In this document: piece by piece, positions 13,344 through 56,235 of the stretch
Layout of the letters: each line of letters starts with the position of its first letter
How positions within the stretch are numbered: position 1 is the first letter of the stretch
DNA from: Escherichia phage VB-EcoM-WM
Sequence record: PQ014731.1
Reading direction: 5' to 3' (one strand)
DNA length: 64,000 bases
Made by a program: the position numbers and the translations under genes
The notes under the pieces: model-generated
Told to the model about the DNA's origin: nothing
The model's input: the letters and a program-made list of their open reading frames with translations, nothing else
Databases searched by the model: none

Positions 13344-14672
13344 ATGAGTAAAACCAAATTAGAACTTACCTGGGTAGGTAAAAACGAGCGCAAAAAGTTA
13401 GAGCCGCACATTTTGTTAGAAGATTCTAGCAAATCTTACCACAGCCAGAAAGTGACCGAAAACGATATTTTTGATAATAAACTGATTTTTGGAGATAACT
13501 TATTAGCATTGAAGGCGCTAGAGCAAGAGTATGCAGGCAAAGTGAAGTGTGTTTACATAGACCCACCATTCAATACCGGGAGGGCTTTTGAGCACTACGA
13601 TGATAGCCTGGAGCATTCCATTTGGCTGGGCTTAATGAGGGATAGGTTAGAAATAATTCGTAATCTTCTGAGTGATGATGGGGTAATATTCGTTCACTTA
13701 GATGGTTGCGAAATGGCGTATTTAAAAGTTTTGATGGACGAGATTTTTGGTCGTGCAAATCAGTTAAATACCATCTCGATGACCACAAATTCCCCTTCAG
13801 GATTTAAGGCAACAGGAGCCACAGTTTTCTCCACAGCAAACTTTTTGCTTGTATATGCAAAAGATCGCAACCAGAAACCGCTTAACAAAATCTATATACC
13901 TAAAGGGTATGATACAGGATATAACAAATACCTATTAAACCCGGATGACCATTATAAAAATTGGACGTGGTGTGGTATTGCCGATGCGTTTGCAAAGGCC
14001 CATGGCTATAAAGATGCAAAAGAAGCCAAGAAAAAACTGCCTGACACATTCGATGATGAATTAGCACAATTCGCAATTGATAATGCAGAACGTGTATTTC
14101 AATCTGTTGCAATTGGTGGTGGTGCTAAAATAAAGAGAAAAGAAACTATCGAGAAGTCAAAGAAAGATAGGGATAAGGTTTATGTACATCCAAATGAGGA
14201 TGTTGAAGGATTTTATATCGCAAATGGTAGGCAAATGGTCTTTTACTCCAACAGGCTTTTGGAAATTGACGGTGAGATGCAGCCTGCGGAACTAATAACT
14301 GATGTTTGGACAGATATTAGTTGGAATGGAATAGCAAATGAAGGTGGCGTTAGTTTCAAAAATGGTAAAAAACCAGAAGCGCTTTTGAAGCGGATTTTCG
14401 AAATGTGTACGCGAGAAGGCGATTTGGTATTGGATTCATTCGGTGGTTCGGGAACTACTGCTGCTGTAGCTCACAAAATGAAAAGACGTTGGATCTTGAT
14501 CGAACTGGGTGATCATTGTCATACCCATATTATTCCGCGCTTGGAAAAAGTGATCGATGGCGAAGATCAAGGTGGTATTTCTAAGTCTGTAAACTGGCAA
14601 GGTGGTGGTGGTGGCTTCCGTTATTACAAACTTACCCCGGCCTTAATTGCGAAAGATATATCTGATCAATAA
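13344..14672 (+). CDS. DNA N6-adenine/N4-cytosine methyltransferase (beta-class, Type III Mod-like), orphan
   Basis: Motif IV YIDPPFNTG preceding SAM-binding DSFGGSGTT; FGDNLLALKAL stretch; no adjacent restriction subunit. Confidence 0.8.
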   Translation: MSKTKLELTWVGKNERKKLEPHILLEDSSKSYHSQKVTENDIFDNKLIFGDNLLALKALEQEYAGKVKCVYIDPPFNTGRAFEHYDDSLEHSIWLGLMRDRLEIIRNLLSDDGVIFVHLDGCEMAYLKVLMDEIFGRANQLNTISMTTNSPSGFKATGATVFSTANFLLVYAKDRNQKPLNKIYIPKGYDTGYNKYLLNPDDHYKNWTWCGIADAFAKAHGYKDAKEAKKKLPDTFDDELAQFAIDNAERVFQSVAIGGGAKIKRKETIEKSKKDRDKVYVHPNEDVEGFYIANGRQMVFYSNRLLEIDGEMQPAELITDVWTDISWNGIANEGGVSFKNGKKPEALLKRIFEMCTREGDLVLDSFGGSGTTAAVAHKMKRRWILIELGDHCHTHIIPRLEKVIDGEDQGGISKSVNWQGGGGGFRYYKLTPALIAKDISDQ

Positions 14673-14685
14673 AGAGTACAATCAA

Positions 14686-14991
14686 ATGATGAAACGTTAT
14701 AAACCATACACTTTTGAAATCGATTTCGAACTTGACGATATGTTTACTGTAGAAGCTCAGGCAGTTGTCCAGTTGCCAGACCCGGAGTGCCGTGATTCTG
14801 ATGTTGACTATTACGGATTTAGACAAATTACCTATGTGCATGTTTACCACAACGGTGAAGAGGTGGACCTCCACCAACTGCCAAACGATTTGCGACACTC
14901 AATTTACAAACGTGCAGCCCGTGAACTAGAGTCCTATCTGGATGCAGCGACGACAGCAGCTGCATTTGCTGAAGAAGTGGGAGGTTTCTGA
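14686..14991 (+). CDS. hypothetical protein
   Basis: Track ORF 14647 overlaps upstream gene; internal ATG 14686 taken as start. Confidence 0.45.
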   Translation: MMKRYKPYTFEIDFELDDMFTVEAQAVVQLPDPECRDSDVDYYGFRQITYVHVYHNGEEVDLHQLPNDLRHSIYKRAARELESYLDAATTAAAFAEEVGGF

Positions 14992-15389
14992 TGATTACAG
15001 GTGTGAAGATTATCCAATACCACTTAACTAAATTGGAAGATGCTGAAAAAGAGCTTGCAGAAGTTCTGAATAGCGGATATACTTTGCTATCATGCGCCTG
15101 CTCAGATACCTACGCTGTGTGGACACTTATCCGGAAGGAAGAGCCTGCGGGGATCTTGGTGCCAAACCCTAAGATCATTAGTGAGGTGGATGACTATGCT
15201 CAGGACGGCCTGCCAGAAGGCTGGGAAGTATGGGAAGGTGGTGAAAACCCTGCACCAGGTAAGTGGGTAAAATACAAACTACGTAGCGGTGCACAGTACG
15301 CTGACTACTCTGATGACCTGGATTGGAGTCATTCTTCACCAGGATCATCTGCAAGTTCATATGATATCATAGCTTTTCAGGAAGAATAA
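14991..15389 (+). CDS. hypothetical protein (132 aa)
   Basis: ATGA overlap with upstream gene. Confidence 0.5.
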   Translation: MITGVKIIQYHLTKLEDAEKELAEVLNSGYTLLSCACSDTYAVWTLIRKEEPAGILVPNPKIISEVDDYAQDGLPEGWEVWEGGENPAPGKWVKYKLRSGAQYADYSDDLDWSHSSPGSSASSYDIIAFQEE

Positions 15390-15401
15390 GGAGATAGTGT
15401 T

Positions 15402-15884
15402 ATGTCAGATTTTATGTGGAAAGTAGGTTACGCAGCTCCTGAAATGTGTGAGGCTTGCTTTGTGAAAATAGGCCGCGAGGATATCGACAAAGTGATCCTT
15501 AAGTTTCGTGATGTGGCTGTGATCGGCAACCGAGTGCTTAAGCACTTAAAGAATTTGAAGCTCACTAAAAAGAAGTTCTTCGGACTTTTCGAAGAGAAAG
15601 TTGATGCTTGGACCCATTGCATCCAGGAAGCTAAATCTCACTACAGTGCTATCGTTACTCCAGAACGGGTAGCCAAGATGGAAGGATTCATCAACAGCAC
15701 AGAATTTGAGTGTCTGAAAGCTGCACTCGATAGTTATCCGAAATGCCTCAAGCACTTGGACAAGTATGTAGAAAAGGATGGGGAAATGTATCTCACCCTG
15801 GACGCATACTATGAGATGCAAGAAATTTTAAATTTAGATTTGACATTGGTATCCACCGAGTATACAATAGGTATCCGGGTTTAA
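15402..15884 (+). CDS. hypothetical protein (160 aa)
   Basis: RBS AAGGAGA upstream. Confidence 0.5.
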   Translation: MSDFMWKVGYAAPEMCEACFVKIGREDIDKVILKFRDVAVIGNRVLKHLKNLKLTKKKFFGLFEEKVDAWTHCIQEAKSHYSAIVTPERVAKMEGFINSTEFECLKAALDSYPKCLKHLDKYVEKDGEMYLTLDAYYEMQEILNLDLTLVSTEYTIGIRV

Positions 15885-15890
15885 CACTAG

Positions 15891-54709: not shown

Positions 54710-54748
54710 GCTACCTCCTACTTCTACCGTCCCTGGTAAGATAAATTA

Positions 54749-55147
54749 TTACTGAACAAAGCGCGGAGCTGGGAAGGATAACTCTTCTAAAGAGAAGATT
54801 TCATTCCCCACAATCCATGTTGCAGGATCATCTGGGTTGACTGGATAGATAATCATCACCTCGTCAGTGTTACATACCCGCTTTTTACCTGTGGAGTCAT
54901 CAGCAACCAGCATGCGCGGTTCTTCAGAAATGCACAGGTAGCCTCCTCGGCCCACTGTTCCTTCCACAGGGTCTTGTCCTTTGATCACGATGATTATCTT
55001 CTCTCCTGAGGCGATATTACCTTGCACACTCACCGTTTGACCAACCTTGGATGTGCCAATCTTAGTGACTTCGAACATTACATCCCGAATTACTGTTGCA
55101 TAATCGCCAGACACTTTCTTACCTTCTTTAGTGATCTCAATCTTCAT
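54749..55147 (-). CDS. hypothetical protein (132 aa)
   Basis: MKIEITKEG start. Confidence 0.5.
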   Translation of the reverse strand: MKIEITKEGKKVSGDYATVIRDVMFEVTKIGTSKVGQTVSVQGNIASGEKIIIVIKGQDPVEGTVGRGGYLCISEEPRMLVADDSTGKKRVCNTDEVMIIYPVNPDDPATWIVGNEIFSLEELSFPAPRFVQ

Positions 55148-55383
55148 ACACTGGGCTCCTTAAATGAATCTATGTAATCAATTAAATCCCAAGCATCCCT
55201 ATGACCTGTCAGAGGGTATACTTCTCCAAGAGGGATCATAGCAATAAGTCTATCAAAAACCCAATCTGGACGCAACATTTTATGGTGATACTCCCACTCA
55301 CCTTCTACAGACTTTTTCTGGGTGATCAGGATCTCTGTGCAGTGTTTCGCCTGTCTTGAGTAGATTGAGAATGACTTGTACAT
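55144..55383 (-). CDS. hypothetical protein (79 aa)
   Basis: ORF-track ORF. Confidence 0.5.
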   Translation of the reverse strand: MYKSFSIYSRQAKHCTEILITQKKSVEGEWEYHHKMLRPDWVFDRLIAMIPLGEVYPLTGHRDAWDLIDYIDSFKEPSV

Positions 55384-55420
55384 AAATGACCCCTCCTCTT
55401 GTTGAAAACAAAATACACTA

Positions 55421-55705
55421 CTACCAGGTCACTGTCAAGTAGGCAACTGTGTTATTTTTCTCCGGAGAGATGCCAACAACATCCACCTGCAGACCTCCTG
55501 CCCTCAAATCCCCAACAATGTGCGGGAAGTAGTCTGAGAGGTGTGATGGGAGATTTATCGAAAATCCACATCCCAGAAAGCCTGCTAACGCTTTATTTTG
55601 TATCTCCCCTACAATCGCATCATAAATAGAGTTAAGCTCGTCAGGAAGCGTTACAGGACGTTTTAGCGCTAACTGGTGCAACTTGTCCTTAGCACTCATT
55701 TTCAT
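55421..55705 (-). CDS. hypothetical protein (about 94 aa)
   Basis: Track ORF 55421..55774 overlaps upstream gene by 73 nt; ATG at 55705 overlaps its stop (ATGA). Confidence 0.45.
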   Translation of the reverse strand: MKMSAKDKLHQLALKRPVTLPDELNSIYDAIVGEIQNKALAGFLGCGFSINLPSHLSDYFPHIVGDLRAGGLQVDVVGISPEKNNTVAYLTVTW

Positions 55706-56235
55706 TTCAAGTCTGCCTCTGGTGGTGCCAACCACATAAATGGCGGCAAGTCTAGACGGTTTTTCTTGTCCCATACAAAATATGCATATGCCTGCCCATC
55801 CGTTCTACCATTGGATTGGAATGACGGACGCTTAGATATTGTGATCACAGTGGTAGGTGCATTATCAAGCCACCATTCAAATCTGGCCTTGCTTTCCAGA
55901 AAATTAAGACGCAAAAGCATAATAACTACATCGGCATCTTTCAACGCCTTGTCCACAAACTCACGAGCCAGGCTGTACGGCGGGTTGGTGATAATACAGT
56001 CAACATGGTTGTATTCTGTATTCAGATAGTCAACACCTTCTTGGATTTCTCCCCATGCAGATCCTAACGGCATACGGGAGTAGAACACACCTGAGGCGCT
56101 ATTCCTGCAAGGCTCTAAGTAGGTCCAGTCTTCTGGGAACGGAATAAGGTCATACAGCCCTTCTGCACACCACTCCGGTGTCACATACTCGTCGTAAGCG
56201 TTACGTTGTTCATCAGGTTTTCTAGCACAAGTCAT
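55702..56235 (-). CDS. small DNA N6-adenine methyltransferase-like protein (phage Dam-like)
   Basis: DCIITNPPYS motif IV; 177 aa; RBS GGAG. Confidence 0.65.
   Translation of the reverse strand: MTCARKPDEQRNAYDEYVTPEWCAEGLYDLIPFPEDWTYLEPCRNSASGVFYSRMPLGSAWGEIQEGVDYLNTEYNHVDCIITNPPYSLAREFVDKALKDADVVIMLLRLNFLESKARFEWWLDNAPTTVITISKRPSFQSNGRTDGQAYAYFVWDKKNRLDLPPFMWLAPPEADLK

Follow-up and report, generated by a model that had tools for sequence, protein, structure and literature searches.

Introduction

Relatives of two of the DNA methyltransferase genes considered here have been characterized in Escherichia coli phages that trigger or escape retrons. The genes, termed P1, P2, and P3, are located in a 64 000-nucleotide stretch of Escherichia phage VB-EcoM-WM (PQ014731.1), referred to below as the window. 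In Escherichia phage WalterGehring (Bas51), escape from retrons Asa1 and Squ1 arises through mutation of "the N6 adenine methyltransferase" (D69G, D79G, or T83P), an enzyme whose expression in E. coli is toxic and which triggers both retrons (PMC12548924, PLoS Biology 2025). Native nanopore sequencing of wild-type Bas51 gave N6-methyladenine (m6A) counts of 1405 at GATC, 509 at GTAC, and 576 at other sites, and the T83P mutant gave 35, 511, and 349, respectively (PMC12548924). In phage K42, a 95%-identical relative of the BASEL phage Bas06 (KarlJaspers), mutations that escape retron Ec86 disrupt a 711-bp "Dcm-like" gene (10.1101/2023.08.16.553469). Analysis by LC-MS (liquid chromatography coupled to mass spectrometry) showed that wild-type K42 Dcm raises 5-methylcytosine (5mC) on the multicopy single-stranded DNA (msDNA) of the retron while a C82A/E128A/K175A/K176A mutant does not, and changing the CCTGG site of the msDNA abolished defence (10.1101/2023.08.16.553469). 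A third point of comparison is provided by the Mod subunits of Type III restriction–modification (RM) systems from EcoP15I and Helicobacter pylori.

The window belongs to a Vequintavirus genome (rV5-like E. coli myoviruses, ∼137 kb). Positions 13000–18000 are ∼97% identical at the nucleotide level to more than 80 Escherichia phages, among them isim, JES2013, and several BASEL phages, and the segment around P3 is likewise ∼97% identical to many Vequintavirus records. In GenBank, relatives of P1 are labeled "putative N6 adenine methyltransferase" or [quoted passage not shown], those of P2 "Dcm-like C5 cytosine methyltransferase", and those of P3 "putative N6 adenine methyltransferase" or "DNA methyltransferase". 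The genes are thus already annotated in many rV5-like phage records, and the substance of what follows is already public. Literature on the marks themselves is sparse: nothing on Vequintavirus methylation was found in the rV5 genome paper, the Danish wastewater phage paper, the two Druantia/OI-172 papers, or the m6-dAMP preprint, nor did a literature search on GTAC retrieve anything on the subject.

Three Orphan Methyltransferases

The original prediction, made from the DNA letters of the window, had proposed three DNA methyltransferase-like genes without restriction partners. All three open reading frames (ORFs) were recovered at the predicted positions with the expected motifs in place, and the absence of partners held up as well: Pfam and PADLOC scans detected no restriction-endonuclease domain among the immediate neighbors of P1, P2, and P3 or in ten other large ORFs of the window. 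A six-frame regular-expression scan of the window for [DNS]PP[YFWH] or xPC[QTNS] yielded no convincing ORF for an additional methyltransferase. Taking P1, P2, and P3 together, it is very probable that the phage methylates its own replicating DNA by means of several orphan methyltransferases dependent on S-adenosylmethionine (SAM).

P3, a Minimal GATC Adenine Methyltransferase

The most direct evidence concerns P3 (55702–56235, minus strand), a minimal gamma-class N6-adenine methyltransferase of 177 aa specific for GATC. P3 and the Bas51 protein bas51_0176 are identical at 177 of 177 residues, including D69, D79, and T83, so that the enzyme whose activity was measured in Bas51 does not differ at the protein level from the one encoded here. 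Positions 69, 79, and 83 are C, G, and E in P1, and Q, A, and I in a fourth methyltransferase of Bas51 (bas51_0200, described below), ruling out both as the site of the retron-trigger mutations; since the three residues fit P3 only, the published retron-triggering enzyme is P3. Judged by this sequence identity, P3 is expected to write m6A at GATC. Its designation as "Dam-like" in the original prediction was therefore apt in function, GATC m6A having been shown for the identical Bas51 protein.

In family membership, P3 stands apart from Dam. Its motifs X TPEW (residues 19–22), I LEPCRNSASG (40–49), and IV NPPY (84–87) follow the X-I-IV order of the gamma class with a TaqI-like catalytic fold, and a profile of 38 homologues aligns motifs X, I, and IV with those of M.TaqI (E 9e-5). 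M.TaqI comprises 421 aa, whereas P3 lacks the C-terminal DNA-recognition domain. Searches against the Pfam Dam families gave no match to PF02086 (D12 class) and 19.2 bits against PF05869 (phage Dam), below the cutoff of 28.1; PF13651 likewise scored 20.1 bits, below its cutoff of 26.4. P3 is accordingly a functional analogue of the E. coli and T4 Dam enzymes outside the Dam Pfam families. It would act as a bare TaqI-like catalytic domain that places m6A on essentially every phage GATC, as shown for the identical Bas51 protein.

Site frequencies agree with extensive marking. The window contains 330 GATC and 122 GTAC sites, which scale to ∼1450 GATC and ∼536 GTAC adenines for 140.7 kb and two strands; these values lie near the m6A counts of Bas51, indicating that GATC and GTAC are nearly fully methylated in that phage.

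The neighborhood of the P3 gene resembles that in Bas51, with a ClpP-like protease upstream and a "glycosidase" a few genes downstream. The ORF at 53934–54470 (minus strand) aligns closely with the Bas51 "putative glycosidase" and is its ortholog, although no Pfam domain was found in it. A premature stop, R87*, in the Bas51 "glycosidase" abolishes defence by retron Asa1 while defence by retron Squ1 is kept (PMC12548924); the Bas51 protein has Arg at position 87.

P2, a Probable Compact C5-Cytosine Methyltransferase

P2 (15936–16700, plus strand; 254 aa) is best described, by analogy with a family member of demonstrated activity, as a compact "Dcm-like" C5-cytosine DNA methyltransferase. It displays the C5 motif order of I FxGxG, IV Pro-Cys, and VI Glu-Asn in the form of FDGSGG (residues 18–23), FPPCT (86–90, with Cys89), and ENP (135–137, with Glu135), the Val of ENV being replaced by Pro throughout the family. 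Further segments are RDAYPKIT (177–184), a variable region of ∼40 aa (188–226), and IRSLTPRG (227–234). Both the C5-like motifs and the short length for a C5 enzyme had been anticipated by the original prediction, which had also suggested that the FPPCT motif and small size might indicate a different pyrimidine-modifying enzyme. That suggestion finds no support, given that PPCT and small size are family-wide, that the fold is of the C5 type, and that a 54%-identical homologue makes 5mC.

The family is large. A profile search retrieved phrog_757 "DNA methyltransferase" (E 1.2e-86, residues 10–261 of the 264-aa ORF that begins at GTG 15906) with no accompanying Pfam match. A word-indexed search gave 3546 homologues, with lengths of 219–262 aa among the matches listed, and an exhaustive search gave at least 2041 clusters at 50% identity. 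Family matches occur in 1503 phage records, 115 of which carry an ortholog at 95–99% identity. Nearly all members span 200–260 aa (median 233) and conserve FDGSG, FPPCT, ENP, Y-x-K-x-T-x-x-W, and IRSLTPRG; because size and PPCT motif are shared so widely, the shortness of P2 does not reflect truncation or decay. All 38 close relatives have the catalytic Cys, which 110 of 118 divergent representatives also retain; the Glu is kept in 115 of 118, and there is little or no variation at ∼40 other positions. In most members only 35–39 residues separate the conserved Trp from IRSLTP, leaving no separate target-recognition domain; in canonical C5 enzymes this domain comprises at least 80 aa, as against the ∼40 aa of the P2 variable region. 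A Pfam scan of the longer members for fusions found only D12 Dam and HNH domains, in two proteins (P0270 and P0253), one with a D12-class Dam domain joined at its C terminus, the other fused to an HNH endonuclease domain. The Dam fusion amounts to a two-headed C5 and N6-adenine methyltransferase.

Structural comparison points in the same direction. An AlphaFold2 model of P2 (predicted local distance difference test score 89.9) was used as a Foldseek query, and the best 50 matches were all DNMT3A, DNMT3B, DNMT3C, or the prophage CP-933R enzyme. C5 DNA methyltransferases topped both structure searches, ahead of other Rossmann-fold families; kinship with an unrelated family of that fold, the outcome named in the original prediction as contradicting it, did not emerge. 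Relative to the canonical enzymes M.HhaI, M.HaeIII, and E. coli Dcm (324–472 aa), P2 has ENP for ENV and lacks the motif VIII QxRxR, with R177-D-A-Y-P-K182-I-T in its place. The residue after Pro-Cys is Thr rather than Gln, a departure with precedent in DNMT3B, which has Asn (PCN). In the proposed catalytic cycle, Cys89 would attack C6 of a flipped-out cytosine, Glu135 would protonate N3, and C5 would receive its methyl group from SAM.

The characterized homologue was located through Bas06. The gene bas06_0055 is 711 bp long, and its 236-aa product is 54% identical to P2 from end to end (E 3e-86). The residue numbers published for K42 (C82, E128, K175, and K176) fall exactly on a Cys, a Glu, and a Lys-Lys pair of the Bas06 protein, the first three corresponding to Cys89, Glu135, and Lys182 of P2. 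Both proteins are compact, share FDGSG, FPPCT, ENP, Y-x-K-x-T-x-x-W, and IRSLTPRG, and give models nearest to DNMT3A/B. They differ in 8–10 additional N-terminal residues of P2, in their host phages (Vequintavirus for P2, Drexlerviridae for K42 and Bas06), and in the variable region, which is SGYSMQHAKLGG in P2 ("GYSxQH" type) and DKDNPGWAKTGG in the K42/Bas06 Dcm ("NPGW" type). As the two regions are of different type, the CCWGG target proposed for K42 Dcm is not transferable to P2; CCWGG is also not avoided in the window (130 observed versus ∼150 expected). There is a slim chance that P2 represents a second specificity class, the GYSxQH type, with a target other than CCWGG, or, more radically, that Arg228 directs it to carboxy-SAM and hence to 5-carboxymethylcytosine.

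The start of the gene required a choice. The mechanical ORF begins at GTG 15906 (264 aa), which sits inside a G+C-rich, terminator-like hairpin at 15889–15914 (plus strand; 11 pairs, then a run of T) separating the upstream ORF from the P2 ribosome-binding site; TTG 15936 was taken as the true start for this reason. It is preceded by an AGGAG ribosome-binding site and agrees with public annotation. Just ahead of P2, still within the upstream ORF at its 3′ end, lies a sigma-70-type promoter-like site at 15840–15868 (plus strand; TTGACA, 17-nucleotide spacer, TACAAT), which matches 11 of 12 positions and is identified by consensus match only. The succession of a near-consensus promoter, a strong terminator-like hairpin within 20 nucleotides, and then the P2 ribosome-binding site and TTG is odd, and may represent a regulated leader or signals belonging to different transcription phases. 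At its other end, the last 11 nucleotides of the gene overlap a primase/helicase gene (ATG 16690). As the P2 gene leads the replication genes and overlaps the start of the primase/helicase gene, the enzyme is probably made together with the replisome.

P1, a Type III Mod-like Methyltransferase, and the GTAC Mark

P1 (13344–14672, plus strand) is a beta-class protein of 442 aa with an ATG start after AAGGAGA and the motif order DPPF (residues 73–76), central variable region, and FGGSG (366–370). It matches PF01555 N6_N4_Mtase (E 9e-42), phrog_67 (E 1.3e-61), and most strongly the PADLOC model MTase_III PDLC03636 (E 1.7e-201, model positions 2–442 of 575). Its best PDB sequence matches are the Mod subunits of H. 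pylori (6k0w, E 1.2e-28) and EcoP15I (4zcf, E 2e-23), which, together with the PADLOC result, confirms the Type III Mod-like character ascribed to it originally. These subunits share with P1 the order of DPPF, variable region, and FxGxG as well as strong sequence similarity, yet they comprise 618–644 aa, and P1 leaves the best PADLOC model unmatched over its final ∼130 positions. No Res gene was found beside P1, whose neighbors are a PIF1-like helicase, rather than a Res subunit, upstream and small ORFs without domains; it is therefore an orphan. The DPPF motif suggests, from established motif usage, that adenine is the target.

P1 is 98% identical to bas51_0070 of Bas51, where GTAC m6A is untouched by mutation of the P3-identical enzyme (509 versus 511) and 349 "other" sites also stay. 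E. coli K-12 is not known to have a GTAC adenine methyltransferase, from which it follows that a phage enzyme writes GTAC m6A. P1, apparently the only other adenine methyltransferase, was considered as the necessary GTAC writer, an assignment dropped because the full Bas51 annotation contains a fourth methyltransferase, bas51_0200 (MZ501111, 124069–124887, outside the window; 10070–10888 in locus L014), a 272-aa protein with YVEPSAGRGSF as motif I and GNPPF as motif IV. Most likely, P1 would write either GTAC m6A or the "other" m6A sites of Bas51, and the fourth enzyme would write whichever of these P1 does not.

Counterevidence and Alternative Activities

Several observations weigh against the picture of three orphan methyltransferases marking the DNA of this phage. 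The methylome on which it draws is that of Bas51 rather than of VB-EcoM-WM, and the Bas51 study called 6mA only, so that the 5mC evidence comes from K42 Dcm and not from a Vequintavirus. The link from P1 to GTAC is not unique, bas51_0200 being an equally good candidate. Broad protection by the marks is excluded by the high sensitivity of Vequintavirinae to the RM systems tested with the BASEL collection. As for P2, Ile183 occupies the place of Lys176, one of the four residues mutated together in K42 Dcm, a position that is K in 53 and R in 21 of 118 representatives and varied in the rest. P2 has no match to PF00145 even at E values up to 1, and none to any Pfam or NCBIfam model; a profile of its family searched against the PDB reached DNMT3B at an E value of only 0.23, with motifs I–IV covered, and when the family was compared with E. 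coli Dcm by hhalign, the probability was 0.3% and motif IV alone was aligned. Other sequence comparisons are similar: a precomputed PF00145 match exists for only 3 of 120 listed relatives, and single-sequence phmmer against the PDB returned M.HaeIII at E ∼1. Since links of this kind to canonical C5 enzymes are too weak, the case for P2 rests on fold, motif conservation, and the characterized homologue.

Other activities could be proposed for P2. A C5-fold enzyme might transfer a group other than methyl, for instance carboxymethyl from carboxy-SAM, as does phage CmoX, which has an SPPC motif and an Arg in place of the motif X Asn of M.HhaI. P2 combines FPPC with a nearly invariant Arg228 in IRSLTPRG, putatively near the place of the CmoX Arg, and carboxy-SAM is available in the E. 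coli host as a product of CmoA. Against this stand the 5mC that LC-MS detected for the 54%-identical K42 Dcm, the typical location of phage CmoX beside CmoA and often a CmoY-type ligase, when the neighbors of P2 have no Pfam match, and the fact that the DNMT3 enzymes, its best structural matches, are true methyltransferases; carboxymethylation is thus highly improbable. DNMT3 enzymes also carry Arg at the motif X position (GRSWSVP). That P2 is an inactive C5 methyltransferase relic with its target-recognition domain lost would fit the ∼40 residues found where canonical enzymes have a large domain, as well as the missing Pfam match and QxRxR. A relic is nevertheless very unlikely, with compactness the rule in at least 2041 clusters of median length 233 aa, Cys, Glu, and ∼40 further positions nearly invariant, a family member of the same size (236 aa) active, and the gene kept at 95–99% identity in 115 phage records. 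It is highly improbable that P2 is an RNA enzyme, such as a Dnmt2-like tRNA m5C methyltransferase, even though phages of this type encode tRNAs and the cytosine methylase of phage CB7 (Certrevirus, a related genus), a possible homologue of P2, has Entamoeba Dnmt2 as its best HHpred hit: the characterized homologue methylates DNA, the gene resides in the replication module where it overlaps the primase/helicase gene, and one relative carries a fused Dam DNA methyltransferase domain. A compact C5-cytosine DNA methyltransferase is retained as the assignment of P2.

Interrupted Genes and Database Records

Elsewhere in the window, the DNA polymerase gene (18827–23415, plus strand) is interrupted twice. 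An in-frame insertion of 324 aa (nucleotides 20840–21811), absent from the Bas53 polymerase, begins with CYSGDTQILT and ends with VAVCGN followed by Cys; it looks like an intein from these termini, and gave no Pfam match. The ORF then stops at 22225, an HNH-like ORF occupies 22360–22866, and the C-terminal part resumes at ∼23059–23415, an arrangement as expected for a putative intron carrying a homing endonuclease. The Bas51 polymerase is annotated as a join of two pieces that enclose a homing endonuclease. The gene for the anaerobic ribonucleotide reductase, nrdD (60844–63744, minus strand), is also split, into an N-terminal part at 62575–63744 and a C-terminal part at 60844–61851, with an HNH/NUMOD endonuclease ORF (61972–62523) between the two and a further T5orf172-type endonuclease ORF at 59801–60733. 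Bas51 nrdD is likewise annotated as a join.

Dozens of GenBank records numbered MG0656xx and named "Campylobacter phage" (host Campylobacter jejuni) are ∼97% identical to E. coli vequintaviruses, and others of the same name and series match T1-like E. coli phages. The batch looks like a case of host mislabeling or contamination.

Biological Role of the Methyl Marks

Anti-restriction self-modification, the conventional reading and the role originally envisaged for the three genes, is a plausible function with regard to enzymes that cut at GATC, GTAC, or the P2 site. Among the 4-bp palindromes in the window, GTAC is the second most depleted (observed/expected 0.60) after CTAG (0.52), and GATC occurs at 1.01; GGTACC and GAATTC are each present five times in the 64 kb. 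Only restriction enzymes with sites overlapping the marks would be countered, and the marks would also carry a cost by being sensed by retrons. Such a cost has been demonstrated for the P3-identical protein, which triggers two retrons (PMC12548924), and for the P2 homologue, which triggers retron Ec86 (10.1101/2023.08.16.553469). By analogy with Bas51, what is documented for P3 is the opposite of protection, namely, the triggering of retron defence.

It is possible, though doubtful, that the three enzymes are active and have a main role other than anti-restriction, either in DNA metabolism (marking of phage versus host DNA, packaging, or control of mismatch repair) or against defences other than RM. 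Loss of the P3 activity costs Bas51 little in the laboratory, with titers of ∼2e10 versus 5e10 PFU/ml (plaque-forming units) (PMC12548924). Site usage can be read in the same sense, GATC not being depleted though fully methylated and GTAC being both depleted and methylated, as can the description of Vequintavirinae in the BASEL study as "exceptionally susceptible" to the RM systems tested. On the other side, no alternative to anti-restriction has been demonstrated for P1, P2, or P3. M.KpnI methylates the adenine of GGTACC, and m6A at GTAC would block KpnI-type enzymes. The RM systems of the BASEL panel are, moreover, not known to recognize sites containing GATC or GTAC, in which case the observed susceptibility says nothing about protection there.

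As a discovery, the set of genes carries little weight, P3 having been characterized as an identical protein and the "atypical" P2 belonging to a family with a characterized member. Its importance lies in the marks: they determine by which restriction enzymes, Type IV systems, and retrons a group of phages widely considered for therapy and biocontrol is affected.

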